The notes: a model not told the origin generated them from the sequence alone. 64,000 nt of DNA from an uncultured virus (IMG/VR IMGVR_UViG_3300043473_000054) (IMGVR_UViG_3300043473_000054), one strand, 5' to 3'; positions 1-59,594 are shown, counted from the stretch's first letter. Numbers and translations: made by a program.

Positions 1-463
1 CGCCGGGCCGGACCCGATGGACATGGATCTTCCGGGCCTGCCGTCGCTGGACAGCTTCATCTACCGCTCCGGAGCGCCCGTCCTCGCGGCAGTCGGCACG
101 GACTTGCAGCTCTCGACCATGGAGGGGCCTAACCTGGCGGCGACGTTGCTGACTGGCTCCCATGAGTTCCAGGCTGGGCGACGGGTGAGAATGCGCAGTG
201 TGCTGACCTACATCGAGGAAAGCCGGCGCGCAGGGGACGGGCTTACCTACGAGCCGAGCACCATCACCGTAAAAGTGTCGAAGCGGCAACGCTATGGCGA
301 CGACTGGCTGACGTCGTCCGCCATACCGCAGCAGCGTAGCGGTTACTACCGCATGAATGCAGACGGGCACTTTCACCGTTTTCAGATCGACATTCCGGCC
401 GGGACGGATTGGCAGCATGCGGCGGGCTGGGAGGCGGACTTCGTGCCGACGACTGGCCGGTGA
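1..463 (+). CDS. Tail nozzle/DNA-stabilisation-like protein, 3' part (5' truncated)
   Basis: Near-identical to the C-terminus of 40497..41975. Confidence 0.7.
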   Translation, partial: AGPDPMDMDLPGLPSLDSFIYRSGAPVLAAVGTDLQLSTMEGPNLAATLLTGSHEFQAGRRVRMRSVLTYIEESRRAGDGLTYEPSTITVKVSKRQRYGDDWLTSSAIPQQRSGYYRMNADGHFHRFQIDIPAGTDWQHAAGWEADFVPTTGR

Positions 464-768
464 AGCAAGTCGACGCGCGCTCTCGCGATATCAGGGAACA
501 CGCCGAGGCGCTGTTTCTGCTGACGCGGGATAGGGACGATATCGTGACGCTGACGGCGGGAGCGACGACAACTGTCGTGACAGATCCGACCGTGACACCG
601 GATACGGTATTTATCTTCGATCCGCTGACCGCCAGTGCGGCGGCGGAGCTCGCTGCCGGCACGATGTATGTGCTCGCTGCCGATCGGCTGCTGGGCTCTT
701 TCACCATTACCCACGCCAACGCCGGAACGACGGACAGAATCTTCCGCTGGCTGGCGGCTGGAGACTGA
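460..768 (+). CDS. Small virion/tail protein
   Basis: GTGA overlap with upstream gene; conserved copy at 41972..42280. Confidence 0.75.
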   Translation: MKQVDARSRDIREHAEALFLLTRDRDDIVTLTAGATTTVVTDPTVTPDTVFIFDPLTASAAAELAAGTMYVLAADRLLGSFTITHANAGTTDRIFRWLAAGD

Positions 769-772
769 CACC

Positions 773-15182: not shown

Positions 15183-15599
15183 TCAGGCGCTGTCGGCAGA
15201 TGGCGACGGGCTGGCGGGCTTCAAGGCGCGCTTCCTCCACCTCATGTTGCGAATGTCCAAGACATATTGGGCGCTCACGCCATAGAGGCGTCCTGTTTTC
15301 GACGCATCCAATCGGCCATTGCGAATTGCGATGACCTGATCGTCAGTGAGTTTTGCGTTGCCATTACGTAGCCCAATAGGCTGCGGTGTCTTGCGTGAAT
15401 GGCATAGGACGCAAAGCCATCTGACCGCTAAGGGGTGGTTGTAGCCAAGGTAATGATGTCCTTGGATCAAACTGCGGCCATCTTTCCCCCTGCGTGGAAG
15501 CTGTCCGCATTCATCGCAAAGGTCTGGCTTAGCTAGGTCGCCCCGTTCAATAGCCGTCCTAACTTTCCGGTATGCTTGGTTTTTCTCGCGAGATGGCAT
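15183..15599 (-). CDS. HNH-like endonuclease with C-terminal DNA-binding motif
   Basis: CxxC..HH..Y..PL.VRWLCxxCH and GxRNGNAKLT motifs. Confidence 0.7.
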   Translation of the reverse strand: MPSREKNQAYRKVRTAIERGDLAKPDLCDECGQLPRRGKDGRSLIQGHHYLGYNHPLAVRWLCVLCHSRKTPQPIGLRNGNAKLTDDQVIAIRNGRLDASKTGRLYGVSAQYVLDIRNMRWRKRALKPASPSPSADSA

Positions 15600-15895
15600 C
15601 AGGATTTATCCCTTAAAGCGCGAATTGCGGCGATCACGCTTCTGGTCGCAAGAATGTTGCCGTGCTCGTCTAAGCAAGAGCACTGCCTAACAGCTTGCTC
15701 AGCCTCCTCCAGTGTGGCGTTACGGATGGCGGCGACGTGGATTGTGGCTCGGCTCCTGACGTAAGCGTCTTCGATCATCGGCGTGACGGCAGCGAGCATG
15801 GCGGTTGCGAGTCGCCCCGCTTCATCCATTTCAAAGAACATGTATGACTCGTCGCGCAGCGCCCGCGCCGCAGCTTCGATGATGGGATCGCTCAT
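15599..15895 (-). CDS. MSDP-family small protein, paralog 3
   Basis: MSDPIIEAAARAL..LEEA..AAIRAL. Confidence 0.75.
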   Translation of the reverse strand: MSDPIIEAAARALRDESYMFFEMDEAGRLATAMLAAVTPMIEDAYVRSRATIHVAAIRNATLEEAEQAVRQCSCLDEHGNILATRSVIAAIRALRDKS

Positions 15896-16145
15896 GGCTG
15901 CTCCTTGAGGGCGCGAATGGCGGCGGCGATCTCTTCTACTGTCCAGCGGTAGCTGTGGCTATCGTGGCCATCTTCGTCCGGTTCAAATGCTCTCGCCGCC
16001 TCCTCCAGCGCGGCGGCGCGGATCAGCGGCGCGACGGCAGTGAGGACGGCAATAGCAAGCACTCGCGCGTCGTCAGCGTAGGTCATCCGGATTTTCAGCG
16101 CCCGCGCCGCAGCTTCGATGATGGGATCGCTCATGGCTGCTCCTT
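15857..16145. repeat. 50-bp direct repeat (15857-15906 and 16096-16145) spanning RBS/stop/start junctions
   Basis: cagcgcccgcgccgcagcttcgatgatgggatcgctcatggctgctcctt twice. Confidence 0.9.
15892..16134 (-). CDS. MSDP-family small protein, paralog 2
   Basis: Same motifs; ATGA coupling. Confidence 0.75.
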   Translation of the reverse strand: MSDPIIEAAARALKIRMTYADDARVLAIAVLTAVAPLIRAAALEEAARAFEPDEDGHDSHSYRWTVEEIAAAIRALKEQP

Positions 16146-16421
16146 CGGGGGAATAATAAGCGCGCGAATATCTTGTGCGATAACCGCCCACTCTTCGTCA
16201 TCGACGCCTCCTAAACCCTCCACCATCTGAGCAGCCCGCTCCAGCGCGGCGGCTTCGATCAGCGGGAGGGCAGCAAGGGCAGCGTCGGCCCGCAGAAGAG
16301 CTTGCTTAGCGAACGGAGACTGATCTCCCACTGCGACCACAAAGGCTTGCCGGAACTCCTCCATTGCCCGCGTCGCAGCTTCGATGATGTCGGGGTTGCG
16401 TATCAGAGCGGGGTCACTCAT
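16131..16421 (-). CDS. MSDP-family small protein, paralog 1
   Basis: Same motifs; single homolog at 57025..57303. Confidence 0.75.
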   Translation of the reverse strand: MSDPALIRNPDIIEAATRAMEEFRQAFVVAVGDQSPFAKQALLRADAALAALPLIEAAALERAAQMVEGLGGVDDEEWAVIAQDIRALIIPPKEQP

Positions 16422-16557
16422 ACGAAAAACCTCTGTTTACGTAGAGCCCTGTGGAGTACCCATTCCACCAACCGTGCCTGAACCGTGAACAAACATCCGA
16501 AAACGGCATAATGTGTCCCGGAGAAAGCCCGCAATTCCGCCTGTTCCAGCTAGCATC

Positions 16558-16608
16558 CTACGTTGACATCGTAGGGGTTCACAGGTTCGAATCCTGTCGC
16601 GCCCACCA
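16558..16608 (+). other. att site: 3' half of tRNA-Val(GAC)
   Basis: CTACG-TTGACAT-CGTAG anticodon arm, ACAGG-TTCGAAT-CCTGT T arm, CGCGCCC-ACCA; 28 bp from integrase stop; no 5' half. Confidence 0.9.
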
Positions 16609-16635
16609 TCTTTTCAAGGAGTTAGGAGACCATCT

Positions 16636-17658
16636 TCATATTTTACTGCGGTCGCGGCGAACCTGCGGGGCCAGATCATCGAACTCCAGCGCACTCGCAG
16701 CGCGTCTCAGGTGATCAGGTTGGAAACGGGCATATGCCTGGAACGTGACCCGCTCATTCGAGTGTCCGAGGTATTGGCTGATCTCGCTTATGGACACGCC
16801 ATCTTCCGCCATATGGATCGCAGCAGATCTTCGGAGATCATGCGGCGATACGTGCTCCAGCCCAGCACGCTGCGCGGCGACTCTCAGGCCGCGCTTGACG
16901 CTCTTCACCGGCCTCCCGGCCCATTCTATCACCCAGTCCGTCAGAGCGCCCTGGCGGGCCTCCTGAAGGGCAGCGCGAGCGGTCCGCAGCATGGGGACTA
17001 TGGCGCGGCCTTTGTGGGGGGCGGATAGCGTAGGGTCGCGAAGATCAATTCGCCCTGTCTCGAAATCACAGCGGTCCCATGTAAGTCCAAGCAATGCAGC
17101 ATTTCGGGCGGCAGTCGTATAGGCGAGGATTCCGTAGAGCCGGATATGCGGTAAGTGTGCGTTATCGAATAGCGCACGGACCTGCTCTCGGGTGAGGTGT
17201 CGCTCTCGGGGCCTTGGCTTGGGCGGTCTTTTGATGTGCGGGGCACGGTCGATCAGCCCTTGCTTCTCGGCCCAGACGAGCACCATCCGGAGGTGTCCGA
17301 GTTCGGTATGGATTGTGCCGGGCTTAATACCGTCACGGAGACGTGCGTCAATGTGGGCACGGCAGTCGGCAACCGTAACAGAATGAGCCTCCATCGGCCC
17401 AAAGCGATCTCGTAGAGCCTTCCAAGTGTATCGCATCGTCCCTGTAACGGCGCGACCTTCCTTATCCTGAACATATGCGCTCCACAGTTCCTCGACCGTC
17501 GTTCCCTTCGGCCGCGTCAGCTCGGCGTAGAGCGCTGGCGCAAGCCGTTCAGCCTCGCTCGCGCTAGTGGTTCCAAGCGAGTAACGGTGCCGCTTTCCGT
17601 CTCGCCACCAGGTGAGGCAGAGCCGTCCGTTGAGCCGTCCGATGCGGTATTCCGGCAT
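16636..17658 (-). CDS. int: Tyrosine integrase
   Basis: R..HDLRR..LGH..Y catalytic motifs; start at MPEYRIG by comparison with 58423..59442. Confidence 0.95.
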   Translation of the reverse strand: MPEYRIGRLNGRLCLTWWRDGKRHRYSLGTTSASEAERLAPALYAELTRPKGTTVEELWSAYVQDKEGRAVTGTMRYTWKALRDRFGPMEAHSVTVADCRAHIDARLRDGIKPGTIHTELGHLRMVLVWAEKQGLIDRAPHIKRPPKPRPRERHLTREQVRALFDNAHLPHIRLYGILAYTTAARNAALLGLTWDRCDFETGRIDLRDPTLSAPHKGRAIVPMLRTARAALQEARQGALTDWVIEWAGRPVKSVKRGLRVAAQRAGLEHVSPHDLRRSAAIHMAEDGVSISEISQYLGHSNERVTFQAYARFQPDHLRRAASALEFDDLAPQVRRDRSKI

Positions 17659-24841: not shown

Positions 24842-25339
24842 ATGTGCGGCATAATGAGCGTCGCCGCCAATGATCCGATTGCGCCGCCTGAGTGTCCGCA
24901 TGCGGAATTGCAGTCGGTAAAATACATAACCGCAAACGGACTCTGGCAGCATCGCCGCCAGTGTATCGAGTGCGGCAAATTCCTCGCCGGCTCGCTACCG
25001 CACAATCGCCTGCCGGCCGACGCCCCGGTAATCACCGCCGCCGAATACCAGAAGCGCCAGGACAGCGAATGGGAGCGGGAGGCGGCGCGCGTCGAGAGCC
25101 TGCGCAAATCCAAGCGGCAGGAATGGCTGCGCGAGCACGACCTCTACCTTCAGACTCCGCAATGGCGCCTAAAGCGCAAGGCGGTGTTGGACCGCTGCCA
25201 CTATGTCTGTGAAGGCTGCGGCCTGCAGAGCGCCGTGCAGGTGCATCATCTGACCTATACGCACTGGAAAAACGAATTTCTGTTTCAATTGGTCGGGCTC
25301 TGCGCCGGATGCCATGAGCGATTACATGAGGGGAGCTAG
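24842..25339 (+). CDS. HNH/zinc-finger protein
   Basis: YL.TPQW..KR..V..CEGCG..VHHLTY..LC..CH. Confidence 0.75.
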   Translation: MCGIMSVAANDPIAPPECPHAELQSVKYITANGLWQHRRQCIECGKFLAGSLPHNRLPADAPVITAAEYQKRQDSEWEREAARVESLRKSKRQEWLREHDLYLQTPQWRLKRKAVLDRCHYVCEGCGLQSAVQVHHLTYTHWKNEFLFQLVGLCAGCHERLHEGS

Positions 25340-31196: not shown

Positions 31197-31766
31197 GTGG
31201 CCAAGCTGTCCGTCTCCGAGGTGCAGGCCATCCTCAAGGGCGAGAAGAGCGACGCGCTTAGCGCAGCCGAGAGCAGCAAGCTCTCCGAGGAGCGGGCGCG
31301 GGCGCTCGACTACTACCAGGGCGACATGGCACGCGACATGCCCGCTCCTGCCGATCGCTCCAAGGCCGTCTCGTCCGACGTGGCGGATGCCGTCGAGGGC
31401 CTGATGCCGTCGATGATGGAGGTGCTGCACGGCGGCGACGACGTGGTGGAGTTCGTCCCGACAGGTGCGGAGGACGAAGAGGCGGCGCAGCAGGAAACCG
31501 ACTACGTCAATTATGTATTCACGCAGAAAAACAATGGGTTTCTTATCGACTATACCTTTGTGAAGGATGCGCTGCTGTCGAAGGTCGCGATCGTGAAAGT
31601 ATATTGGGAAGACAAGGAAGAGAGCATTGAGGAGAGCTTCTGGGGCCTGCCGGAGGCGGCCTACGGAATGCTGAAGCAGGCAAAGGACATCGACATCATC
31701 GAGCACACTGAGCGGCAGGGCATTCCCGGCCAGCAGCCGCGTGACGAGCAGCAGGCCGCTTACTGA
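31197..31766 (+). CDS. Portal protein, N-terminal segment
   Basis: R..ALDYY.G..S.DVAD.VE..MPS..F.P..ED..AA.QETDYVNYVF..DALL.K..VKVYW. Confidence 0.8.
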   Translation: MAKLSVSEVQAILKGEKSDALSAAESSKLSEERARALDYYQGDMARDMPAPADRSKAVSSDVADAVEGLMPSMMEVLHGGDDVVEFVPTGAEDEEAAQQETDYVNYVFTQKNNGFLIDYTFVKDALLSKVAIVKVYWEDKEESIEESFWGLPEAAYGMLKQAKDIDIIEHTERQGIPGQQPRDEQQAAY

Positions 31767-32146
31767 TGGGCAAGCGCAAGGGCGATCTTCCGCCATCTAG
31801 AGAGAGGCGTAAAGACAGGATACGTCGGCTGAATAAAGCGACGCTGATTGAGATGGTATTTGCCGAGGAGAAGAGGACCCACTTTTGGTTTGAGGAGAAT
31901 AAGCACCACAAGGATGCGCTGAAGCAGATGAAGCGTGAACTGGACCGCGCAAAGCACGACCTGCATGTGCATGGCGTGAATGGCGACTACCTCGGCATGT
32001 CGGTGCGTCTGGAGGTCGCCCAAGCTGAACTGCGCGGTGCCAAGGCAGACCTGAAGATCCTTGAGGAGGCACTCGCCGACAAGCAGGCCGGCAATCCCAA
32101 TTGGGAGAACGTGGCCGTGATGAAGATGCGCAAGGCGCGCTACTGA
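31766..32146 (+). CDS. Coiled-coil hypothetical protein inserted between portal segments
   Basis: TGATG coupling at both ends; flanked by TACTGATGG repeats. Confidence 0.7.
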   Translation: MGKRKGDLPPSRERRKDRIRRLNKATLIEMVFAEEKRTHFWFEENKHHKDALKQMKRELDRAKHDLHVHGVNGDYLGMSVRLEVAQAELRGAKADLKILEEALADKQAGNPNWENVAVMKMRKARY

Positions 32147-34062
32147 TGGCCCTGCCTCCCTATCCCATGCAGCCTCCCGGGCCTCCCGGCGCAACCCCCG
32201 GGCTTGACCCGCGGGCCATGCCTATGGGGCCTCCTGGCGGCATGGGACCGCCACCGCCGGGAGGCCCGCCAGGGCCACCAGGGATGCCGCCAGGCGGGCC
32301 GATGCGTCCTCCCGGCCCTCCGCCGCCTCCTGGCGCTCCACCGCCTCCAGCGGGCATGCAGGGGCCTCCTGGCCCACCTCCAATGCCTCCACCTCCTCCG
32401 CCCATGCCGGAGACGGTGCATGACGTGAAGATCAGCCGCATCCGCAAATACGGCTGCGCCAGGGTCGAGAACGTGCCGCCGGAGGAGTTTGGCGTCTCGC
32501 GGCGGCAACGCTCCGTCATGCTGCGCGACTGCGACTACTGCTACCACGAAGTCAGGAAGACGGAGGCCGAGCTTATCGCTGCCGGCTACGACAAGGAGCA
32601 GGTCAAGGCGCTGCCCGACTATGCCGGCGATGGCACGACGGAGGAGATCGCCCGCGACACGGTGGACGACAATGCATTGTCGGGGTCCGAGGGGCTGAAC
32701 AAGGCCAACCGGCAGATCCGCGTCACCGAGCACTACGTGATGATGGACTATGAGGGCGACGGCAAGCCGCGCCGCTATCGGGTGACGACGGCTGGCAGCG
32801 GTAGCGAGATCCTGAAGCGCAAGGGCCGCCCGGAGATCGTGCCGGACATGGTGCGCTTTGCCGCCATGACGCCGTTCATCAATCCGCACCGCTTCTATGG
32901 CACGTCCATTGCCGACCTCGTCATGGACATTCAGAGGATTAAGACTGCGTTACTCCGGCAATTGCTCGACAACGTCTATTTTTCCAACAACCAGCGCTTG
33001 GAAGTCGCTGAGGATGGGGCGACAAAGGACACGATCGACGACGTGCTGTCGAATAGGGTCGGCGGCATCATCCGCACCCGTCGCATCGGCTCGGTCGCAC
33101 CTGTCCCGAACCAGCCGATCGGAAGCTTCGTGTTTCCCATGCTGGAATACATGGACACGCTGCGGGAGTGGCGCACGGGTGTGACGCGGCAGGGCCAGGG
33201 CCTCGACCCGAACGCCTTGCAGAACATCGGCGAGCGGGCCGTGCTCGACGCGCAGAACGCCGCCCGCGCCAAGATGAAGCTCATCGCTCGCATCTTCGCC
33301 GAGACGGGCATTCGGGAGATGTTCTGGCTGCTGCACGCGACGATCCGCCAGAACGCCAGTGAGGCCGAGACAGTGAAGCTGCGCGGCCAGTGGGTGAAGG
33401 TAGACGCGCAGGAATGGCGCGAGCGCAACGATCTCACCATCAACGTCGGGCTTGGCTCCGGCGACAAGAGCCAGGAAATCATGGTGCTGCGCGAGATCAT
33501 GCAGATCCAGGGCAACGCCATGACGAGCCCGAAGATGACCGGGCTCGCTGGGCCGCAGCAGGTTTACAACACGGTCAAGCAACTCACGCGCAAGGCGGGG
33601 CTGAACTCACCTGATCCCTACTTCACCGATCCGAGCAAGACGCCTCCGCAGCCTCCCGAGCCTTCTCCCGAGGAGAAGAAGGGCATGGCGGAGATGCAGT
33701 TGAAGCAGGCTGACATGCAGATGCGTCAGCAGGGCGCTATGGCCGACGCTCAGATGCGCCAACAGCAGGCGCAGCAGGACATGGCCATGCAGCAGGCCAA
33801 GGCGCAGCAGGATGCCGCGCTGCAGCGTGAGAAGTTCATGCTCGACGCGCAGCTTCAGCGTGAGCAGATGCAGGCCGACGCGGAATTGAAGCGGGCGCAG
33901 ATTGATGCCGAATTGATGCTGAAGCGGGAGACGCTCGCGGCGGAACTGGCATTGAAGCGCGAACTTGCGATGGCTGGGCTGCAGCTCAAAGCCTCAATGC
34001 CGCCTCCGGGCTCGAATGGCGGCGGGACGAGCGGCGTGCACATAGGCGGCGAGCCAGGGTAG
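32146..34062 (+). CDS. Portal protein, C-terminal segment with poly-Pro leader and Gln-rich coiled-coil
   Basis: ENVPPEEF, PHRFYG.SIADLVMDIQ.IKTALLRQLLDN, RTGVT, IARIFAETG. Confidence 0.85.
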   Translation: MALPPYPMQPPGPPGATPGLDPRAMPMGPPGGMGPPPPGGPPGPPGMPPGGPMRPPGPPPPPGAPPPPAGMQGPPGPPPMPPPPPPMPETVHDVKISRIRKYGCARVENVPPEEFGVSRRQRSVMLRDCDYCYHEVRKTEAELIAAGYDKEQVKALPDYAGDGTTEEIARDTVDDNALSGSEGLNKANRQIRVTEHYVMMDYEGDGKPRRYRVTTAGSGSEILKRKGRPEIVPDMVRFAAMTPFINPHRFYGTSIADLVMDIQRIKTALLRQLLDNVYFSNNQRLEVAEDGATKDTIDDVLSNRVGGIIRTRRIGSVAPVPNQPIGSFVFPMLEYMDTLREWRTGVTRQGQGLDPNALQNIGERAVLDAQNAARAKMKLIARIFAETGIREMFWLLHATIRQNASEAETVKLRGQWVKVDAQEWRERNDLTINVGLGSGDKSQEIMVLREIMQIQGNAMTSPKMTGLAGPQQVYNTVKQLTRKAGLNSPDPYFTDPSKTPPQPPEPSPEEKKGMAEMQLKQADMQMRQQGAMADAQMRQQQAQQDMAMQQAKAQQDAALQREKFMLDAQLQREQMQADAELKRAQIDAELMLKRETLAAELALKRELAMAGLQLKASMPPPGSNGGGTSGVHIGGEPG

Positions 34063-36654: not shown

Positions 36655-37463
36655 GGCAAGTTCAAAACCTCGCCGCCGCGAGCACGGCTAATGCGGTGCT
36701 CGAAGGCGACGACGCGACGATCGATGCCGCCACTCCAACCGTGCGGCTCGGCAACATCGCGCAAATCTCCGACAAGGTGGCGGCAGTCACCGGCACGGAG
36801 AACGCCATCGACCGGGCCGGGCGTGACAACGAGCTGTCCTATCAGCTTGCGCTGAAAGGGCAGGAGCTAAAGCGCGACATGGAGAGCATCCTGCTCTCCA
36901 ATCAAGCGAAAAACGCGGGCGCAATCGGCACGGCAAGAAAGACCGCGTCGGTGCTGGCATGGATCGGCACCAACGACGCATTCGGCGCATCGCCGGGTGC
37001 GTCTCCGGTCACTCTCGACGGGCTCGCTACAAGGACTGACGGCGTGCAGCGGGCTTTCACCGAGGCGCTTCTGAAGCCGGTCCTGCAGCTCATCTGGAAC
37101 GAGGGCGGCGATCCTGACGTGATCATGGTCGGGGGCGCAAACAAACAGGCGTTCAGCACGTTTACTGGTCGCACGGGAACGGCCGGGCCGAATGAGCAGA
37201 CATCGACGAAGAAAATCGTCAACAATGTCGAGATTTACGAGGGAGACTTCGGCACGCTGAAGGTGGTCGCCAACCGCTTCATGCGGACGAGGGACTGTCT
37301 TGTTCTTGAGATGGACAAGTGGGCCGTAGCATACCTCCGCAACATGCGGCGGTGGGACTTGGCCAAGACTGGTGACTCCGAGAAAACACAGATCTTGTGT
37401 GAGTATAGTTTGGAAAGCCGCAACGAAAAAGCTTCGGGTGGCGTTTTCGACCTGACACCGTAA
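36655..37463 (+). CDS. Major capsid protein, exon 2
   Basis: WQVQNLAAA..NAVLEGDD..RLGN..QIS.K..ELKRDME..YEGDFG..LAKTGDSEK..NEKA; spliced product 318 aa. Confidence 0.92.
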
Positions 37464-37560
37464 CACCCATCGCCGCCACGCCTTCAGTCCCGTTCACACT
37501 GGACCGAGAGCGAGCACCTCCTGTGGCGTGGCGGCGACCTTAAAGCAGGGAGGAGAACAC

Positions 37561-38319
37561 ATGGCCAGGCCGAAGGGCTCGAAGAACAAGCCGAAGGCCC
37601 GCCCTCCGGCGAAAGCCAAGGCGAAGCCCAGGCCACAGGCCAAGGCTGAGCCGCCCGATTGGCTGCGCAAGGCAATGGCGCCGACCAAGACACCGCAAAA
37701 ACGTGGGCCGAGGCCCACGAGAGTGAAGGAAAAAGCTCAAACACTGGCGAAAGCCAAGAGAGGAAAGAAACCCATGGCGAACAAGCCGCACTACGACCCG
37801 ATGGACGATCCAGACCTGCGGGCTGGCGACGCGAAGGGCGATGCACCCGGCTGGGAGAGCCCGATCAAGCCGCCGGATACGAGCCTGAAGCCCGGCAATC
37901 AGCTTCCCGGTGCGCCCGACAACACTCTGCCCGGCGCTGGCGGCAAGCCCGACCAGTCCCTGCCGGGTAACCCGATCAAGCCTGGCAAGCCCGCCCCGCT
38001 TCCTGGCGGTGGCGTGCGTCCCGACAATGTGCTGCCGGAAGTGCCGGAGGAAGCACCTCAATTCGACGAGGTGCAGTCGGGCGGGGACATCCCCGACGAG
38101 AACATTCAGATGCTGATTGCCGGCACGCTCGGCGGCTCTGGGGACAATCACGCCAGCGCAAAGCGTATCGTGGAGCGCATGCACCAGGCCGAGTGGGTCG
38201 TCACCAAGGCGCTCGATGCCGGGAGCGGCGACACAGCCAAGGCCAGGAAGGCCAAGGCAGACAAGGACGCCAAGGCCAAGGCAGACAAGGAAGAGGCGGA
38301 TGCCAAGCGCAAGGCTTGA
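37561..38319 (+). CDS. Lys/Pro-rich protein (possible internal start at 37774)
   Basis: GGAGGAG RBS; RPKGSKNK motif; PDNxLPG repeats. Confidence 0.6.
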   Translation: MARPKGSKNKPKARPPAKAKAKPRPQAKAEPPDWLRKAMAPTKTPQKRGPRPTRVKEKAQTLAKAKRGKKPMANKPHYDPMDDPDLRAGDAKGDAPGWESPIKPPDTSLKPGNQLPGAPDNTLPGAGGKPDQSLPGNPIKPGKPAPLPGGGVRPDNVLPEVPEEAPQFDEVQSGGDIPDENIQMLIAGTLGGSGDNHASAKRIVERMHQAEWVVTKALDAGSGDTAKARKAKADKDAKAKADKEEADAKRKA

Positions 38320-38320
38320 G

Positions 38321-38578
38321 ATGCCGGAATTGCCTGCCTCCTTGGACCGGCGTCCGGCCATGCCCAACGCCGCCTTTGAGGGCGGCGATGTGGGCGACGA
38401 TGAGATCGTCACGGGCATCATTCCGACCGAGCGCAGCGTAGTCGACGTAGTCGACCCGGCGAAGGTCCGCGCGCTCATTTCCGAAGGGCTCGGCGGCGGC
38501 AGGCGGCAATACGGGATTGCCGATGCCGTTCTCGCGCTGTTTGCCGAAAAGCGCTGGCACGTCATCAGAGAGGGCTGA
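38321..38578 (+). CDS. Hypothetical protein
   Basis: Packed ORF in late operon. Confidence 0.55.
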   Translation: MPELPASLDRRPAMPNAAFEGGDVGDDEIVTGIIPTERSVVDVVDPAKVRALISEGLGGGRRQYGIADAVLALFAEKRWHVIREG

Positions 38579-38579
38579 T

Positions 38580-38867
38580 ATGGCAACACAATATTGGGGT
38601 GCGGGTCGCATCGGCACGCACCAGTCGGTCGCCTATACGGGAACAGCAGGGACGGTAGCCAATACCATCACGGCCGGGGTGCAGAAGGTGCGCGTCTGTG
38701 CGACGAGCGCCTGCTACATCGCAATTGGCGTCTCGCCCACGGCCACGACAGCCGGCATCTACATGCCGGCCGACACGGTGGAGTATTTCACGGTCGCGGC
38801 GGGCGAGAAGGTGTCGGCCATCCAGAGTTCGGCCGGCGGCACCCTGCACGTCACCGAGGTCAGCTAG
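38580..38867 (+). CDS. Head decoration/spike-base-like protein
   Basis: Small beta-rich protein before fibre gene. Confidence 0.55.
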   Translation: MATQYWGAGRIGTHQSVAYTGTAGTVANTITAGVQKVRVCATSACYIAIGVSPTATTAGIYMPADTVEYFTVAAGEKVSAIQSSAGGTLHVTEVS

Positions 38868-40500: not shown

Positions 40501-41975
40501 GACAGTTCGGCGAGTTCTCACCGGATGTGAGTGACTTAAACACTGACACGCTCGATATCGCCCGCAATGTCCTGCCCGGCATAAACTCATATTTACCGGC
40601 TCCCGGCCTGATCGCACATTCCGTCACGCCGCTGCCGCTGCCCTGTCGCGGCCTCTGGTATGTGCAGACGGCGGCGGGGGACTACGACACCTACGCGGCG
40701 ACCGCCGAAAAACTCTACAAATACGAGCCGGACACCGGCACATTTGCCGATGTGTCGAGGCTGGTAGGTGGCAACTATGCCCTGCCGACTGACGACTATT
40801 GGAGCGGCACGCAATACGGCAACCGGCTGATCGTCTGTAATGGTGGCAACGAGCCGCAATTCATCGACGTGGACAGTGGCGCCAACTTTGCAGACTTACC
40901 GAATGCGCCGATCGCAAGCTTCGTCACCGTCATGGATGACCACGTGGTCTTTTCGCGGCTGTTCACCAACCCGCGTGCGATCCGCTGGTCGGCGATCAAC
41001 GACAGCGAGGACTACACGTCCGGCACGGCGGGCTTTCAGGAGTTCAGTGACGCGGGCGAGGTGACGGGCTTTTGCGCCAACGCGCATATTCTGTTTCTGC
41101 AGCGCGGCCTGAGAGGTATCATCAGCACAGGTGATAAATACGCTTTCAGCTTCCCGACGATGAGCAGCGAGAAGGGCACCGTTTCGCCCTTCGGCGTCAT
41201 CGAGTTTGGCGGCATTGCCTATTGGCTCAGTGACAATGGGTTCTATGTGGGCAATGCGGACCAGCAGAAGAGCATCTCGGAAAAGCGCATCAGTGGCTAT
41301 TTCTATGATGCGCTGAACCAGGGAGCCGTCACTCGGGTATTCTCGACCTTCGACCCGCACGCCTCACGCATTTATTGGACCTACGCGGTGGGTGACGAGC
41401 AATGGAACGACCGCGTGCTGGTCTATGATTGGGGCATCGACCGCTGGTCCGAGTTGGAAGTCAACACCTACATCCTGTCGCGCCTGGCGACAGCTTCGGT
41501 GAGCCTCGATAGCGCCGGGCCGGACCCGATGGACATGGATCTTCCGGGCCTGCCGTCGCTGGACAGCTTCATCTACCGCTCCGGAGCGCCCGTCCTCGCG
41601 GCAGTCGGCACGGACTTGCAGCTCTCGACCATGGAAGGCCCCAACCTCGCGGCGACACTCCTCACCGGCTCGTATGAGTTTCAGGCTGGGCGGCGGGTGC
41701 GCATGCGCAGCGTGCTTCCCTACATCGAGGAGAGCCGGCGCGCGGAGGACGGGCTCACCTATGAGCCGAGCAGCATCACGGTGAAGGTGTCGAAGCGGCA
41801 GCGTTATGGCGATGCGTGGAGCGTCTCGTCGCCGATCATGCAGCAGCGCAGCGGCTACTACCGCATGAACGCTGACGGGCATTTCCATCGGTTCCAGATC
41901 GACATTCCGGCCGGCACCGACTGGCAGCACGCGCAGGGCTGGGAGCCGGACTTTGCGCTGACGACTGGCCGATGA
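40497..41975 (+). CDS. Tail nozzle/DNA-stabilisation-like protein
   Basis: FGEFSPD start, IRWSAIND, YWLSDNGFY; beta-propeller-like. Confidence 0.7.
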   Translation: MRQFGEFSPDVSDLNTDTLDIARNVLPGINSYLPAPGLIAHSVTPLPLPCRGLWYVQTAAGDYDTYAATAEKLYKYEPDTGTFADVSRLVGGNYALPTDDYWSGTQYGNRLIVCNGGNEPQFIDVDSGANFADLPNAPIASFVTVMDDHVVFSRLFTNPRAIRWSAINDSEDYTSGTAGFQEFSDAGEVTGFCANAHILFLQRGLRGIISTGDKYAFSFPTMSSEKGTVSPFGVIEFGGIAYWLSDNGFYVGNADQQKSISEKRISGYFYDALNQGAVTRVFSTFDPHASRIYWTYAVGDEQWNDRVLVYDWGIDRWSELEVNTYILSRLATASVSLDSAGPDPMDMDLPGLPSLDSFIYRSGAPVLAAVGTDLQLSTMEGPNLAATLLTGSYEFQAGRRVRMRSVLPYIEESRRAEDGLTYEPSSITVKVSKRQRYGDAWSVSSPIMQQRSGYYRMNADGHFHRFQIDIPAGTDWQHAQGWEPDFALTTGR

Positions 41976-42280
41976 AGCAGGTTGACGCGCGTTCCCTGAA
42001 TGTCAGGGAGCATGCCGAGGCGCTGTTTCTGCTGACGCGCGACCGCGATGATGTCGTGACGCTGACGGCGGGGGCGACAATTACCACGGTGACTGATCCA
42101 ACCGTGACGCCGGATACCGTTTTCATCTTCGATCCGCTGACGGCGACGGCAGCAGCGGAGAAGGCGGCCGGAACAATGTATGTGCTGGCGGCCGATCGGC
42201 GGCTCGGCAGCTTCACCATCACCCACGCCAACGCTGGCACTACCGACAGAATCTTCCGCTGGCTGGCGGCTGGAGACTGA
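41972..42280 (+). CDS. Small virion/tail protein
   Basis: Homolog of 460..768. Confidence 0.75.
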   Translation: MKQVDARSLNVREHAEALFLLTRDRDDVVTLTAGATITTVTDPTVTPDTVFIFDPLTATAAAEKAAGTMYVLAADRRLGSFTITHANAGTTDRIFRWLAAGD

Positions 42281-42284
42281 CACC

Positions 42285-44681
42285 ATGGCAACGAACGACA
42301 ACCCCTTCGGCGGCGGCGCTTCCGGGGGCGGCGGAGGCATGTTCGGCGGCGGCATGTGGGGTAGTTCGCCCTACGGCGGCTTCAGTGGGGGCTTCGGCGG
42401 AGGCTACGGCATGCCGCAGGGCTATGGTGGCGGCTATGGCATGCAGAGCCCCTACGGAGGCGGCTACGGCGGTTTTGGCGGCGGGATGCCATACGGGGGC
42501 GGCTATGGCATGCAATCGCCCTACGGGGCTCCTGGGGGCTACGGGGGCTACGGGGGCATGCAGTCGCCGTATGGAGGCGGCTACAGCCCCTACGGCATGC
42601 CGCAGGGCTATGGCGGCTATCCGCAGCAGTCTCCGTATGGCGGGTATGGTGGCGGCTATAGTCCCTATGGAATGCCGTCGCAGTATGGGCCGCAGCCGTC
42701 CTACGGCATGCCGCAGCAGCAGACGATGATGGCTACAGACGCCGCCCAGCCGCAAGCGATGGCGGCAACGGTGGACGGCAGTGCGGGAGACGCAACAGGG
42801 GCTGCCGCCGATGCGGCCGCCGCTGCTGGCGGCCTCTTTAATTTCAGCGGCAGCCAATCACAGACGTTCTCCCCGTGGGGTCCGCAGGGCGAGCAACTGA
42901 GAAGACTCTTCTCGGGTCTGAATGCCAACGGAGAAGAAATCTCACAAGAGAACATGCCCACCACGGGCGCGCAGGGCGAACTCTACAAGCAGCAGCAGCT
43001 CGGGCCGACCGGCTTCGACCCGCAGAGCGAGGCCGCCCTGCAGCGGATGCAGGCGCTGGCGACGGGTGCCAATCCGATGGTGGACGCCGCCACCGGGGCC
43101 ACGCAGGGTATTGCCTCCGGGCAGGCCAATATCGGCACCGGCGGGATGTTCCAAGGGCTCTATGACCAGCCCGGCATCCAGAACCTGCAGCAATACCAGG
43201 ACATGTATGCTGATCCCGGCATTGGCGGCATTGAAAAATACGGTGCCATGGCCAACCGCAATGCCATCGGGAACGCCGACCAATACAGCACGATGATCGG
43301 CCAGAACGCGGTCGGCAACGAGGGCGACTACCGGGCCTTCGGCGCCAACCAGATCGGGGCGGACCAGTTCAATCAGCTTTACGGCAACAACGGCGGCATC
43401 AGCCAAGCCGGCTATGGCGATCTCGCCAACCGGGATGCCATGAGCACCCAGCGCATGGAGAGCATCTATAATCAGCCGGGGGTCAATCGGGACTATTACC
43501 GTACCGCCTATGACCTGCCGGGAGTGAACATCGAGAACTTCCAGAGTGCATGGGGAGGCGCGCAGGGGCAGGGCGAGCTCGCGGGCGGCATGTTCGGGCA
43601 GGTAGCACGCGGTGGTCTTGTCAACGGTAACCCGTTCCGCGAGCAAGCCATCCAAGACGCCATGGATCAAACCAGCGACCAGGTGAAGGCGACCATGTCC
43701 TCACGCGGGCGCTACGGCTCCGACGCCTACGGCGATGCCATGGGCAAGGCGCTCGGTCAGGTCGCTACGCAGGCTAGAATGCAAGGCTATGATACCGACA
43801 CCGCCAACATGATGGCGGCGGCGCAGGCGCGGAGCGGCGAGACGCTGGCGCGACAGGGCGTCGGACTGCAGGCGGCGCAGGGCACTATGTCGGCACAGAG
43901 CCAGAATGCCGCTAATCGCCTGGCGGCGGCAGGCGGCCTTGCCGGAATAGAGGGGACGAACATCGCCAACCGGATGGGCCAGGCGCAATCCATCATGAAC
44001 GCCGGCGGCGCAAATGCCCAGCAACGACTGGCGGCGCTGCAGGGGCTTACCGGGGCACAGCAGGCGGGCGGGCAGCAGATGCTCGGTGCGGCGCAGGGAG
44101 CCTACGGTGTCGCCGCGCAGAACCGCGCCAACCAACTCGCGGCCGCGCAGGGCATTACCGGCCTGCAGGGTCAGAACGCCCAGCAGCGACTGGCGCAGAT
44201 ACAAGGGCTATCGGGCATTCAGGGTACCAATTACCAGTCGCAGCTTGGGGCGCTCGGGCAAATGAACGCCGCCCAGCAGATGGCCAACCAGCAGCGCATG
44301 GCAGCGGCGCAGGGCTTAACCGGAGCGCAAGGGCAAAACTGGCAAAATCAGCTAGGCGCGGCGAACGCACTCACGGGCGTTAACTCGCAGGACATACAGA
44401 ACCGCATGCAGGCGGCGGGCATGGCTCCTGCCATGCAGGGGCTGCGCTACGACGACGCGCAGCGGCAGGCGCAGGTGGGCGCGGCGCGTGAGGCGATGCT
44501 GCAGCAGCAGCGGCAATTCGGCTGGGATCAGCTTGCCCGATACCAGGGCCTGATCGGCGGTGTCCCAGGCGCAAGCGGCACATCAAAGACAACAGAGCAA
44601 CGTCCCTGGTGGCAGGACGCTCTCGGCGCAGCATCAACGGCCGCTGGGATATGGGGAGCTATTCCAGGGCCGACTGCTTAA
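42285..44681 (+). CDS. Gly/Gln/Ala-rich putative ejection/internal virion protein
   Basis: Homolog of 773..3250. Confidence 0.65.
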   Translation: MATNDNPFGGGASGGGGGMFGGGMWGSSPYGGFSGGFGGGYGMPQGYGGGYGMQSPYGGGYGGFGGGMPYGGGYGMQSPYGAPGGYGGYGGMQSPYGGGYSPYGMPQGYGGYPQQSPYGGYGGGYSPYGMPSQYGPQPSYGMPQQQTMMATDAAQPQAMAATVDGSAGDATGAAADAAAAAGGLFNFSGSQSQTFSPWGPQGEQLRRLFSGLNANGEEISQENMPTTGAQGELYKQQQLGPTGFDPQSEAALQRMQALATGANPMVDAATGATQGIASGQANIGTGGMFQGLYDQPGIQNLQQYQDMYADPGIGGIEKYGAMANRNAIGNADQYSTMIGQNAVGNEGDYRAFGANQIGADQFNQLYGNNGGISQAGYGDLANRDAMSTQRMESIYNQPGVNRDYYRTAYDLPGVNIENFQSAWGGAQGQGELAGGMFGQVARGGLVNGNPFREQAIQDAMDQTSDQVKATMSSRGRYGSDAYGDAMGKALGQVATQARMQGYDTDTANMMAAAQARSGETLARQGVGLQAAQGTMSAQSQNAANRLAAAGGLAGIEGTNIANRMGQAQSIMNAGGANAQQRLAALQGLTGAQQAGGQQMLGAAQGAYGVAAQNRANQLAAAQGITGLQGQNAQQRLAQIQGLSGIQGTNYQSQLGALGQMNAAQQMANQQRMAAAQGLTGAQGQNWQNQLGAANALTGVNSQDIQNRMQAAGMAPAMQGLRYDDAQRQAQVGAAREAMLQQQRQFGWDQLARYQGLIGGVPGASGTSKTTEQRPWWQDALGAASTAAGIWGAIPGPTA

Positions 44682-57024: not shown

Positions 57025-57303
57025 TCAGGCGCTGTCGGCAGATGGCGACGGGCTGGCGGGCTTCAAGGCGCGAATGTCCTCTGCGATTACATCGGCGACT
57101 TGACTTGTCATTCTGTAGTCCTCAGCCACCTTCGCGGCCTCCTCCAGCGCGGCGGCGCGGATCAGCGGCGTGACGGCGGCGAGAACGGCAATAGCAAGCC
57201 TCTGCGCTTCATCCATTTCGAAGAACATGTATGACTCGTCACGCAGTGCCCGTGCCGCAGCTTCGATGATGGTGTGGTCGCGTATCAGAGCGGGGTCACT
57301 CAT
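57025..57303 (-). CDS. MSDP-family small protein (single copy)
   Basis: Mosaic of the paralogs at 15183-16421. Confidence 0.75.
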   Translation of the reverse strand: MSDPALIRDHTIIEAAARALRDESYMFFEMDEAQRLAIAVLAAVTPLIRAAALEEAAKVAEDYRMTSQVADVIAEDIRALKPASPSPSADSA

Positions 57304-57439
57304 ACGAAAAACCTCTGTTTACGTAGAGCCCTGTGGAGTACCCATTCCACCAACCGTGCCTGAACCGTGAACAAACATCCGAAAACGGCATAATGTGTCC
57401 CGGAGAAAGCCCGCAATTCCGCCTGTTCCAGCTAGCATC

Positions 57440-57456
57440 CTACGTTGACATCGTAG
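57440..57456 (+). other. att core (tRNA-Val anticodon arm only)
   Basis: CTACGTTGACATCGTAG; identity with 16398-16574 stops exactly here. Confidence 0.85.
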
Positions 57457-57535
57457 TGACCGCCTCCTGAAAATACGAGCTAAGTGCCTGTTCTAATTGG
57501 GTCGCCAGAAAATGGCGCTGGAATGAGTACTCCAG

Positions 57536-57609
57536 GGGCCCTTAGCTCAACGGGAGAGCGTCGCCTCGACACGGCGGAGACGTAGGTTCGACCCCTACAG
57601 GGCCCACCA
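57536..57609 (+). tRNA. tRNA-Val(GAC)
   Basis: GGGCCCT/AGGGCCC acceptor stem, GCTC/GAGC D arm, TCGCC-TCGACAC-GGCGG, GTAGG-TTCGACC-CCTAC, ACCA. Confidence 0.92.
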
Positions 57610-58051
57610 CCTTCCAGCTTCTTCCGCTGCGAATATAGCTGACTGTCGCCTTGGCAATACCGAACCGAGCGGCTAGTGCCGTAATTGTTAGGCCGTCAGG
57701 GTTCTGGCGAATGTAGCTGACATCCTCTGCGGTCAGCGTCGTTCTTCCATGGCGTTCACCCCTAGCTATTTGGCCGCGCTCCACCGCATCGTTGCTGTTG
57801 TCCTGTGCCGTGCCTGTAAGAAGGTGACGGGGATTGCAGCACGGTTTGTTATCGCAACGGTGACGAACGATGAGCCCGTCAGGAACTGGGCCATGGATAA
57901 GCTCATAGGCCACTCGGTGAGCCATTGTGCCTCTGAAGCGGCCATATCCGTTGCCGTTCTTATTGCCGATCCAAGGCCAACACTGGAAGGGTGTCGAGCC
58001 ATCCACCCTTGACCAGAATGCAGCGATATCAATAGGTGCCAGATCAGCCAT
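57542..58051 (-). CDS. HNH homing endonuclease overlapping the tRNA antisense
   Basis: CWPW.G..GYG.F..AHRVAY..VRHRCDNKPCCNPRHL; GGAGGAG RBS. Confidence 0.9.
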   Translation of the reverse strand: MADLAPIDIAAFWSRVDGSTPFQCWPWIGNKNGNGYGRFRGTMAHRVAYELIHGPVPDGLIVRHRCDNKPCCNPRHLLTGTAQDNSNDAVERGQIARGERHGRTTLTAEDVSYIRQNPDGLTITALAARFGIAKATVSYIRSGRSWKVVGPVGVEPTSPPCRGDALPLS

Positions 58052-58080
58052 CGTCGCTCCTCCTACGGGCGGCTTGGTTA

Positions 58081-58115
58081 GGGTCAGGAGCCGGTTTGCA
58101 GACCGTTCCTGACCC
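58081..58115. promoter_or_regulatory. Strong hairpin in the HNH leader
   Basis: GGGTCAGGA/TCCTGACCC plus CGGT/ACCG stems. Confidence 0.5.
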
Positions 58116-58189
58116 GCCTTTCTATCTCATCTAGGCGGCTATTTCACTTAGAACGTAGCGGCTTCTCTGGACGTTTGCGGAATGCGCGC

Positions 58190-58426
58190 CTATCCCTTCG
58201 CTTTCGGCTCGAAGCGATCTTTAAGTGTTTTGTACATATCTTCGGCATACATCGGATGCCGACCACCGCCTTGAGAGCGGGTTAGAAATTCCTCTTCACT
58301 GAAGAGTTTCCGCAATATGTTGTCGATGCAGGATTTGTGATGCGCGATGTTCACGTTGTGAGCGTAAACAGAAAAGAGCGCGTCCTCTAGATCATCTATC
58401 CGCTGCTTCATCTGTTGCGGCGTCAT
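58190..58426 (-). CDS. Hypothetical protein coupled to int
   Basis: ATGA overlap with integrase stop; lower GC. Confidence 0.6.
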   Translation of the reverse strand: MTPQQMKQRIDDLEDALFSVYAHNVNIAHHKSCIDNILRKLFSEEEFLTRSQGGGRHPMYAEDMYKTLKDRFEPKAKG

Positions 58427-59442
58427 GGCACTTTTCTCCTTATCTTCGCTGGCTCCAGGTCGTCGAACTCCAGCGCACTGGCAGCCCGCCGTAGGTGATC
58501 TGGTTGGAAGCGGGCGTAGGTGGAGAAAGTCACCCGCTCATTCGAGTGTCCGAGGTACTGGCTGATCTCACTTATCGGCACGCCGTCTTCAGCCATATGG
58601 ATAGCGGCACTTCTCCTGAGATCATGCGGTGATACATGCTCCAGCCCGGCACGCTGCGCCGCGACTCTCAGGCCGCGCTTGACGCTCTTCACCGGCCTCC
58701 CGGCCCATTCTATCACCCAGTCCGTCAGAGCGCCCTGGCGGGCCTCCAGAAGGGCAGCGCGAGCGGTCCGCAGCATGGGGACTATGGCGCGTCCTTTGTG
58801 TGGCGCGGTAAGTTCAGGATCACGGAGGTCGATCCGTCCTGTCTCGAAATCGCAACGCTCCCACCTGAGTCCAAGCAGCGCACTATTCCGGGCAGCAGTC
58901 GTGTAAGCCAGGATAGCGTAGAGGCGGACGTGGGGGAGGTTTGCGTTATCGAAAAGGGTGCGGACTTGCTCTCTGGTGAGGTGTCGCTCTCTGGGGCGGG
59001 GCTTGGGCGGTCTTTCGATGTGCGGGGCACGGGCGATCAGTCCTTGCTTCTCAGCCCATCGAAGCACCATTCGCAAGTGACCAAGTTCGGTGTGGATGGT
59101 TCCGTCTTTGATGTTGTTACGGCGACGTTCGTCAATGTGTGCGCGGCAGTCGGCAACCGTAATAGCAGCACCCTCCATCGGCCCCAGCCGATCTCGTAGA
59201 GCCTTGAACGTGTGGCCCATAGTGACCGTGACAGCTCGTCCTTCCTTATCCCTGACATAGGCCCTCCATAACTCCTCGACCGTTGTTCCCTTCGGGCGCG
59301 TCAGCTCTGCGTAGAGCGCTGGCGCAAGGCGCTCAGCCTCGCTCGCGCTAGTGGTTCCAAGCGAGTAACGGTGCCGCTTTCCGTCTCGCCACCAGGTGAG
59401 GCAGAGCCGTCCGTTGAGCCGTCCGATGCGGTATTCCGGCAT
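58423..59442 (-). CDS. int: Tyrosine integrase
   Basis: Close homolog of 16636..17658. Confidence 0.95.
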   Translation of the reverse strand: MPEYRIGRLNGRLCLTWWRDGKRHRYSLGTTSASEAERLAPALYAELTRPKGTTVEELWRAYVRDKEGRAVTVTMGHTFKALRDRLGPMEGAAITVADCRAHIDERRRNNIKDGTIHTELGHLRMVLRWAEKQGLIARAPHIERPPKPRPRERHLTREQVRTLFDNANLPHVRLYAILAYTTAARNSALLGLRWERCDFETGRIDLRDPELTAPHKGRAIVPMLRTARAALLEARQGALTDWVIEWAGRPVKSVKRGLRVAAQRAGLEHVSPHDLRRSAAIHMAEDGVPISEISQYLGHSNERVTFSTYARFQPDHLRRAASALEFDDLEPAKIRRKVP

Positions 59443-59594
59443 TCGTATGCCTCGACCTGTTGCAGGCTGACGCGCAGTAGTTTCGCGCCAACCTTGAAGC
59501 TTGGCAATTCACCACGCGCGATCAGATTCCGCACGTGGCGTTCCGAGCATTTCCAACGTTCTGCCAGCATTGCAGGCGTTACCACGTCGGCCAT
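59301..59594 (-). CDS. xis: Excisionase-type HTH protein
   Basis: Homolog of 17517..17828. Confidence 0.8.
   Translation of the reverse strand: MADVVTPAMLAERWKCSERHVRNLIARGELPSFKVGAKLLRVSLQQVEAYECRNTASDGSTDGSASPGGETESGTVTRLEPLARARLSALRQRSTQS

Follow-up and report, generated by a model that had tools for sequence, protein, structure and literature searches.

A soil phage attP module with its own tRNA-Val(GAC) and an HNH_3 endonuclease gene: a probable case of tRNA-dependent lysogeny

Introduction

Phages that break a host tRNA gene on integration and replace it have recently been described in the actinobacteriophages, under the name of tRNA-dependent lysogeny (Guerrero-Bustamante and Hatfull, mBio 2024, PMC10865867). 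In the passages of that article used here, Fionnbharth (cluster K4), the phages of cluster L, Gaia (cluster X) and others have cores of 8-17 bp; because the core extends no further, the host tRNA is not rebuilt, and a cognate phage tRNA is required for survival of the lysogen. Close sister phages, whose cores measure 43-45 bp, do restore the tRNA and carry none themselves (the pattern of Table 2 in that article). Here we describe a locus of similar layout in a 64,000-nt stretch of DNA from an uncultured virus (IMG/VR IMGVR_UViG_3300043473_000054), hereafter the window. By direct-repeat and BLAST analysis, the window consists of two diverged copies of one phage genome offset by ~41.5 kb: phage A (window 1-41512) and phage B (window 41513-64000), which is 72-99% identical to A across homologous blocks. 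Our subject is the segment 57244-59594, the module of B that holds the phage attachment site (attP), the integrase gene (int) and the excisionase gene (xis). B is a temperate soil phage with integrase relatives in Alphaproteobacteria. We put at about 60% the probability that it is a phage of the tRNA-dependent kind whose sister A uses a canonical, tRNA-rebuilding attP. Since the layout matches that of published tRNA-dependent lysogeny, the idea itself is not new.

The same passages of PMC10865867 provide an experimental precedent for the mechanism, report that the tRNA of Fionnbharth overlaps the 3' end of a convergent open reading frame (ORF), mention that the Lactobacillus phage Lj965 may be a case beyond the actinobacteriophages, and call the evolution of tRNA-dependent lysogeny unclear. 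The words HNH and endonuclease do not occur in the article (0 occurrences). In Sinorhizobium, a comparable in-silico case that involves tRNA-Leu(UAG) has been presented (PMC11476347 and PMC12429752, in the passages used here). In a full-text phrase search of the literature on tRNA-dependent lysogeny, covering titles and the openings of abstracts, we found no tRNA-Val case and no HNH partner.

HNH enzymes are found in the tRNA region of phage T5. In T4, according to the part of PMC13096335 used here, the free-standing homing endonuclease gene segB lies among the phage tRNA genes.

Results

The attP of phage B has the core without the tRNA 3' half and precedes a complete tRNA-Val(GAC)

The 17-bp core, CTACGTTGACATCGTAG, is present in exactly two copies in the window, one in each phage (16558-16574 in A; the features of B are collected in Table 1). 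In A, the core is followed by a 6-nt variable loop (GGGTTC), a T arm (ACAGG/TTCGAAT/CCTGT) and CGCGCCC-A-CCA, the end of this tRNA 3' segment at 16608 being separated by 27 bases from the minus-strand integrase gene. In B, the P arm and core are identical to A 16362-16574 at 206 of 213 bases, against ~85% for nearby homologous DNA, and in the alignment the identity of the two phages ends at the first base past the core. From this point 998 bp of B (57457-58454) stand where A has 96 bp (16575-16670), until homology picks up again at 58455, within the final codons of int. The replaced block holds, in this order, a 79-bp spacer, a tRNA-Val(GAC), an HNH_3 ORF that is convergent with the tRNA and overlaps it, and an int-coupled ORF of 78 aa. 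A search with Rfam (E<=1) gave no match to tRNA in 57330-57535. The core of B, with both strands of the anticodon stem, was thus kept exactly while everything 3' of it was replaced, which argues for tRNA-dependent lysogeny in B.

These results bear out all sequence observations of an initial annotation of this DNA, which had ascribed to one unit (A) a T arm, acceptor strand and CCA behind the core and had found the tRNA 3' half missing from the other (B). It had also placed in the second unit a full tRNA-Val(GAC) about 80 bp farther on (79 bases by ARAGORN and Rfam), with an anticodon stem, TCGCC/GGCGG, that leaves it without an att core, and an HNH ORF overlapping this tRNA antisense (by 68 bases). 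Its suspicion of one extra T in the 6-nt variable loop of A was right as well, because the core is followed by GGGTC in 41 of the 42 copies examined in Rhizobiales-order genomes; GGGTC is also found in two loci with related integrases (L007 and L008).

The tRNA of B, which begins 79 bases past the core, is the only tRNA gene in the window. It folds into a cloverleaf with the anticodon stem given above, the loop TCGACAC (57566-57572), a 4-nt variable loop and an encoded CCA, and it has A35, C36 and A73, which we take to be identity elements of valyl-tRNA synthetase (ValRS). Since its anticodon arm is unlike the core, the phage does not have a second att core. The gene is 83% identical to Rhizobiales tRNA-Val(CAC) genes and dissimilar to the Val(GAC) target. 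In 17 phage genes, GTC and GTT account for 266 of the 491 Val codons. Position 33 is a C, as in 2 of 105 distinct tRNAs from the loci that were fetched, the other 103 having T33. The tRNA is conserved: an HNH homologue (P0002) is 84-86% identical to the B protein, yet its tail, which reads the antisense strand of the tRNA, is the same at 22 of 22 residues, including the Arg codon that fixes C33. When compared with the xTCACAC loops inferred for HNH-linked Val(CAC) tRNAs (P0236 and P0018), TCGACAC resembles a one-base register shift that would put the former C34 at position 33; speculatively, the loop may be the trace of such a shift from Val(CAC) to Val(GAC), matching the att target.

Two other views of this tRNA were rejected. 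It cannot be the bacterial target gene, as it sits between the phage P arm and the phage int, and its acceptor stem and anticodon arm are unlike those of every host copy examined. Nor can the stump and the downstream DNA make up a split or intron-containing tRNA, as the 3' acceptor strand of B, AGGGCCC, cannot pair with the host 5' strand GGGCGCG.

The target tRNA gene is usually single-copy in Rhizobiales-order genomes

Complete tRNA-Val(GAC) genes contain the exact core, which 190 of the 401 Rhizobiales-order genomes searched possess. Of these 190 genomes, 183 had one core and 7 had two; in the genomes sampled, the target tRNA is thus usually single-copy. In the two-copy cases examined, the copies were a complete gene plus an att remnant of the 3' half, a pair of complete genes on either side of ~36 kb, tandem neighbours, or truncated at contig ends. 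B and the host tRNAs share exactly 17 bp, with flanks that differ on both sides, the bacterial site (attB) being taken from the tRNA genes of the sampled genomes. When the B cassette was searched in the same 401 genomes, the only part to match was its tRNA, 83% identical to Val(CAC) genes of 2 genomes; int had a match, at 65%, in a single genome.

A Phyllobacterium sophorae contig (G006; loci L286 and L287) has two complete tRNA-Val(GAC) genes 36 kb apart, one of them beside an integrase 46% identical to that of B. This prophage seems to carry at its att site a full-length tRNA copy instead of a half.

The same att design recurs in an unrelated phage

The tRNA 3' half stands next to the core in five relatives, namely A and the loci with integrases 81% (L007 and L008) or 57% (L001 and L009) identical; B alone is without it and has a tRNA. 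Between att and int, the relatives have other small ORFs, two unrelated ones in L007 and one in L008, which makes the att-int interval a variable slot. A new result is that none of the three viral records with canonical attP (0 of 3; G001, which is phage A, G003 and G004) has a tRNA gene scoring above the Rfam cut-off. The cassette is likewise absent from all three. The pattern is complementary, a long core without a phage tRNA and a short core with one. DNA of B from 57244 to 58500 had no match in 50,697 phage records.

We then consider 100 core-containing stretches from IMG/VR. In 38 the core lies in a complete tRNA, in 61 it lies outside a tRNA with no tRNA-Val in the available flank, and one (L069) resembles B. 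The latter is part of a genome of 60,532 bp (G805) with direct terminal repeats, 100% complete by CheckV. G805 has one copy of the core, followed after 100 bp by the only tRNA of the genome, a Val(GAC) of 71 bits in the same orientation; this tRNA abuts an integrase 32% identical to that of B, which is followed by a helix-turn-helix (HTH) gene. The G805 tRNA is host-like save for its anticodon stem, which is CTGCC/GGCAG versus CTACG/CGTAG, that is, two compensatory pairs. Such a change would be expected of a phage copy that has to avoid acting as another att core. The proposal, made in the initial annotation, that the phage tRNA is an integration-resistant copy gains support from these two pairs and from the non-core anticodon arm of B. 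G805, a complete phage unrelated to B with the same design at the same core, is a new finding, and it reached this design independently. It has no HNH gene; the att design therefore does not need one.

The recurrence bears on a second explanation, namely that the tRNA of B is an ordinary accessory gene, useful for codon supply or for decoying defences that cleave tRNAs, and that it landed by chance in the slot between att and int. The attP of B would then be crippled, or B would use another site, and there would be no break-and-replace. We consider this quite unlikely. The att-int interval is indeed variable, as L007 and L008 illustrate, no integrated B was found, C33 is odd, and phage tRNAs beside HNH genes are common in lytic phages (according to the part of PMC13096335 used here). 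However, the anticodon matches that of the att target, the 17-bp core is exact while the tRNA 3' half kept by every canonical relative is gone, and int and xis are intact. Moreover, the coincidence would have to repeat itself in G805, where the tRNA is the only one of the genome.

Another phage group has the same 17-bp core (L028, L037, L039, L043, L051 and about a dozen more IMG/VR loci). In this group, a degenerate look-alike of the tRNA 5' half (…GCGTAGAGCTCAC…AAGAGCG) precedes the core and non-tRNA DNA follows it; no tRNA was found in the available flanks of L028. This group may have a reversed att orientation or another design that does not rebuild the tRNA.

A clade of HNH_3 endonucleases is repeatedly linked to tRNA-Val

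The HNH ORF of B is convergent with the tRNA, and over its last ~22 codons it reads the tRNA in antisense, the conserved part being 57614-58051. The catalytic motif is intact, with H64, C66, D67, C71, C72, N73 and H76 invariant in 21 homologues. Among close relatives the block is either present or absent: it is missing from A, G003 and G004, and in B it is flanked by the P arm (206/213) and by int (85%). The HNH-tRNA overlap was found again in P0001 and P0002, from other ENA contigs.

We asked how often HNH homologues end in an antisense tRNA. With a query lacking the tail, hence unbiased, 15 of 87 homologues had tails that read as antisense tRNA by their T-arm signature. A second profile search gave 31 such tails among the 120 proteins listed; because the tails formed part of this profile, the second search is biased. 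Thirty of the 31 are compatible with a NAC anticodon, about half of these uniquely with Val and the remainder merely compatible, and one (P0254) is undetermined. The reading register was set by the CCA end and the T loop, and the anticodon was deduced from the two codons over it: Met or Val followed by Ser stands for G-A-N (uniquely GAC if the first residue is Met), Met, Val or Leu followed by stop for C/U-A-N, and, in the register of the window's own gene, Cys-Arg for GAC and Cys-Glu or Cys-Asp for CAC. Pairs of HNH and tRNA-Val genes were verified at the DNA level in the window (GAC) and in two further loci: in L206 a Val(TAC) gene is convergent with and abuts an HNH gene 46% identical to that of B, away from an att site, and in L212 a Val(CAC) gene lies directly upstream of the HNH gene. 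Distant HNH_3 relatives seldom flank a tRNA, 1 of the best 80 metagenome loci (Thr) and 2 of the best 80 viral loci (both Val) doing so, and some distant homologues lie inside phage tRNA arrays (L345, L357 and L392).

The family as a whole is large (218,376 representative proteins at E<=0.001), and the search of representatives yielded no further tails of use, since clustering at 50% reduces the close clade to a single cluster. Among isolate phages the HNH protein had matches in 704 records, all below 60% identity, and among 401 Alphaproteobacteria it had 1 match at E<=1e-25, 43% identical. In a metagenome scan with generic HNH patterns, the best 80 loci were at most 50% identical and did not include DNA of the close homologues; the same held for the loci listed in scans of viral contigs (queries A1 and P0007).

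The repeated joining of this close HNH clade to tRNA-Val genes, which is new, hints at a mobile tRNA-plus-nuclease cassette and would fit the entry of such a unit into an A-type att region, as the initial annotation had supposed. The proposal is an addition to tRNA-dependent lysogeny in B and does not exclude it: tRNA-Val and HNH gene would form one free-standing homing unit, whose nuclease would cut cassette-less tRNA-Val-like DNA, for instance the tRNA 3' half in an A-type attP. Repair from a B-type genome would copy the cassette in and delete the tRNA half, leaving a whole tRNA that is no att substrate, and a rebuilding phage would become a tRNA-dependent one. We regard the homing unit as possible though doubtful. 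In its favor, the replaced block is bounded by homology on both sides with an unusually similar left flank, antisense tails are found in both searches, three HNH/tRNA-Val pairs are verified in DNA, and the association is rare among distant HNH_3 relatives; also, the B tRNA resembles Val(CAC)-type genes rather than the Val(GAC) target, as if it had arrived with the HNH gene. Against this, cleavage by the nuclease and its target site are hypothetical, G805 has the same att design without HNH, and most homologues are known from protein tails, not DNA, with the second search biased. An HNH gene beside a tRNA could also reflect insertion into tolerated intergenic sites, as in the tRNA arrays. The stronger form, in which an HNH_3 clade welded to tRNA-Val and homing as a two-gene cassette converts a rebuilding phage into a tRNA-dependent lysogen in one step, is in our estimate unlikely.

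The join of core and cassette is real, and the window probably combines two co-occurring genomes

Phage A is a full circular permutation of a 41,942-bp IMG/VR record (G001, the same as G002), with 99-100% match. Window 1-123 is identical to 41513-41635, and the switch from A to B sits within this common stretch. In run X1, which may be the source sample, the contig over the shared stretch 40938-41635 has a depth of 43.8, as compared with 10.4-14.1 for B-specific contigs. The ORFs of the window with PHROG matches are all of phage type (terminase, portal, head, tail, Erf, NinB, methyltransferase, primase and integrase), and no host DNA was found in the window. The contig has the appearance of a path that wraps around through a pair of genomes occurring together; a genuine concatemer or tandem of A and B, which is less likely, would leave the att anatomy unaltered. 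As A is a full circle, the switch lies in a shared stretch and host DNA is absent, the att regions of A and B are both attP-type junctions (P arm, core, P' arm) and not prophage-host junctions. Consequently, the picture of prophage units in tandem, bounded by outer att sites, in which the initial annotation had cast the locus, falls. What stands of its overall interpretation is that the att of B cannot rebuild the tRNA and is accompanied by a tRNA of the same anticodon, which is a published design and is repeated in G805.

A contig assembled in this way raises the question of whether the join of core and cassette could itself be a chimera that arose within the core or P arm common to both phages. 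The graph walk through two genomes, the switch in a stretch shared with the window start and the unequal depths would be in line with this. However, an X1 contig (57427-58690) runs across the join and shows 0 differences, a contig from run X2, which belongs to another study, covers 57249-57581 (P arm, core, spacer and start of the tRNA) at ~93% identity (23 differences, 3 gaps), and P0001 and P0002 come from other ENA contigs with the same HNH-tRNA overlap. An assembly chimera is highly improbable; the join is real, neither chance nor assembly error.

The depth of the cassette bin in X3 and X4 was 29 and 88, versus 673-776 and 1544-2110 for its neighbours (sums over all contigs), a hint that the cassette is a minority form there. 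In a contig of X4, 57271 is linked to 59597 through 14 other letters, and att, cassette, int and xis are missing; certain relatives seem to be without the entire integration module.

Features of the module and its surroundings

The features are listed in Table 1. By Pfam and PHROG, int and xis of B are intact. The B int is 85% identical in DNA to that of A, the core lies ~1 kb 3' of it, and the P arm is common to both phages. In the genome contig collection the B integrase matched only 5 loci, at 41-57% identity. The 78-aa ORF had no Pfam or PHROG match, its best score in the protein atlas being 0.85, to unnamed viral clusters.

Table 1. Features of the attP-int-xis module of phage B and of the corresponding region of phage A.
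Feature	Window position	Strand	Evidence or remark
P arm of B attP	57244..57439	+	Overlaps start of small minus-strand ORF 57025-57303
Att core of 17 bp, identical to positions 27-43 (anticodon stem-loop) in host-type tRNA-Val(GAC)	57440..57456	+	Exact string in host genes
79-bp spacer without tRNA remnant	57457..57535	+	Rfam
Complete tRNA-Val(GAC), orientation as target tRNA	57536..57609	+	ARAGORN; Rfam tRNA 62.4 bits, cut-off 29
HNH_3 endonuclease, 169 aa, C-terminal HTH	57542..58051	-	Pfam HNH_3 1.5e-14; PHROG endonuclease families to 1.6e-28
78-aa ORF, start codon overlapping int stop codon	58190..58426	-	ORF list
Tyrosine integrase of B, 339 aa	58423..59442	-	Pfam Phage_integrase 8.3e-21; PHROG 1, 7.2e-55
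Excisionase-like HTH_17 protein	59301..59594	-	Pfam HTH_17 7.8e-08; PHROG excisionase 9.1e-06
A attP core and tRNA-Val 3' segment	16558..16608	+	Weak Rfam match of T arm and ACCA; identical in G001/G002
Phage A integrase, 340 aa from MPEYRIG start	16636..17658	-	PHROG 1, 4.4e-55; start computed

To the left of the A attP are three tandem paralogous small minus-strand ORFs (15599-15895, 15892-16191 and 16131-16421), adjoined by a 138-aa endonuclease-like ORF (15183-15599; PHROG 2340, 4.4e-11; no Pfam match). The latter was rejected as a relative of the B HNH protein (BLASTP E 0.17). B has one paralogue of these small ORFs (57025-57303) and no counterpart of ORF 15183-15599; the nuclease-like gene that flanks att on one side thus differs between the two phages. 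A second HNH-like ORF of A (24842-25339; PHROG 119, 1.4e-10; no Pfam match) lies directly upstream of the primase/helicase gene.

Elsewhere in A, the portal gene is present as two ORFs (31197-31766 and 32101-34062, covering positions 14-180 and 194-701 of PHROG 1216), and the 335-bp gap between them could reflect a frameshift, an insertion or an intron. For the major head protein, the ORF (36696-37463) spans only positions 69-307 of a 583-position profile, and the 1 kb after it holds a 349-aa minus-strand ORF without family match (window 36696-38589 in all). Tandem 48-51-nt Gly/Tyr-rich repeats at 1013-1159 and 42384-42695 lie inside long ORFs (635-3250 and 42180-44681); their copies are arranged differently in A and B, and the interval 42361-42698 has many joints in the contigs of X3 and X4.

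Discussion

If B is a phage with tRNA-dependent lysogeny, its integrase would most likely catalyse recombination between the 17-bp core and the sequence for the anticodon stem-loop in a tRNA-Val(GAC) gene of the host. Since the P' side of B lacks variable loop, T arm and acceptor strand, attL would be a dead tRNA stump and attR would be without the 5' half: the former would read host tRNA-Val 5' half, core and TGACCGCC..., the latter B P arm, core and GGGTC... of the host 3' half. In the lysogen, the phage tRNA would sit directly behind the stump in the same direction. Either the promoter of the host tRNA or a separate one of the phage gene could drive it, and it could thereby replace the lost decoding of GUC and GUU. 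This mechanism, put forward in the initial annotation, is the reading that we favor. The argument for transcription rests on orientation and proximity in B and G805, not on a promoter-like site that spans core and spacer (TTGACA at 57445, 18 bases, and GAAAAT ending at 57474, with the TTGACA of the core as first hexamer). The sequences show the anatomy, the contrast between A and B, the recurrence in G805 and a target that is usually single-copy in sampled genomes. As no integrated form of B was found, we infer that B inserts into this tRNA gene, that the host tRNA is thereby disrupted and lost, and that the phage tRNA is expressed, charged and needed and complements the loss.

Several observations weigh against this course of events. 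The promoter-like site would be only a weak lead, because the scan gave 1 site at a 10/12 match where 0.8 are expected in shuffles, so that a single consensus match arises at about the chance rate, and the same scan found no such site in G805. The uncommon C33 could impair the function of the B tRNA. Arm-type Int sites of the P' arm may have gone with the replaced 96 bp, leaving B integration-defective, and the window contains just 22.5 kb of B. The host of B may differ from the sampled genomes in its number of tRNA-Val(GAC) genes. All 42 genomic core copies examined precede a tRNA 3' half (one cut by a contig end). Neither B-type attL nor attR was found in the 401 genomes, the 42 core contexts or the contig rows listed; the cassette DNA was not found in the 401 Rhizobiales-order genomes; and the 24-base anticodon-arm string had 0 matches in the viral contig collection. 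A contig joining a host tRNA 5' half to the cassette was also absent among the rows listed, which is no evidence either way as contigs drop rare forms.

On our reading, the locus would extend tRNA-dependent lysogeny, experimentally shown only in actinobacteriophages, to soil phages with Alphaproteobacteria-related integrases and to tRNA-Val(GAC). It offers a natural matched pair, maybe from one sample, in which A would rebuild the tRNA and B would replace it, P arm and core being nearly the same in both, and a ready substrate for probing the minimum core length that the integrase tolerates. The part that could be new, a tentative call on our side, is the HNH link: the nuclease-tRNA linkage suggests a testable route to such phages, and cassette homing, if true, would be a concrete origin for tRNA-dependent lysogeny. 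For annotation, the case advises caution, as a phage tRNA beside int may be a lysogeny gene and not a codon-usage gene.

With the systems of PMC10865867, as described in the passages used here, B shares a tyrosine integrase, an attB overlapping a tRNA gene, a short core, a phage tRNA of the same isotype and a tRNA-less sister phage. Unlike those actinobacteriophages, it comes from soil, has integrase relatives in Alphaproteobacteria, involves tRNA-Val(GAC) and is known here from sequence alone; moreover, its tRNA lies 79 bp from the core in the orientation of the target, and the partner ORF is an HNH_3 endonuclease. The Sinorhizobium prophage resembles B in its target-isotype tRNA and in its alphaproteobacterial host, a probable one for B, and its authors liken it to tRNA-dependent lysogeny; it differs in tRNA, integrase and phage, and the passages of these articles used here mention no nuclease partner. 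From the canonical tRNA-rebuilding attP of A, L007 and L008 (a class outlined in the introduction of PMC10865867, as far as used here), with which it has in common the integrase family, P arm, core and att-adjacent int, B is set apart by lacking the 34-base tRNA 3' segment that this class needs. Finally, like free-standing HNH and GIY-YIG homing genes, the HNH gene of B lies beside a phage tRNA, is absent from close relatives and sits at a boundary of sequence exchange. Whereas the homing genes of lytic phages sit in tRNA arrays, the HNH gene of B accompanies a single tRNA cognate to the att target of a temperate phage, and its clade, unlike them, is tied to one isotype, Val.

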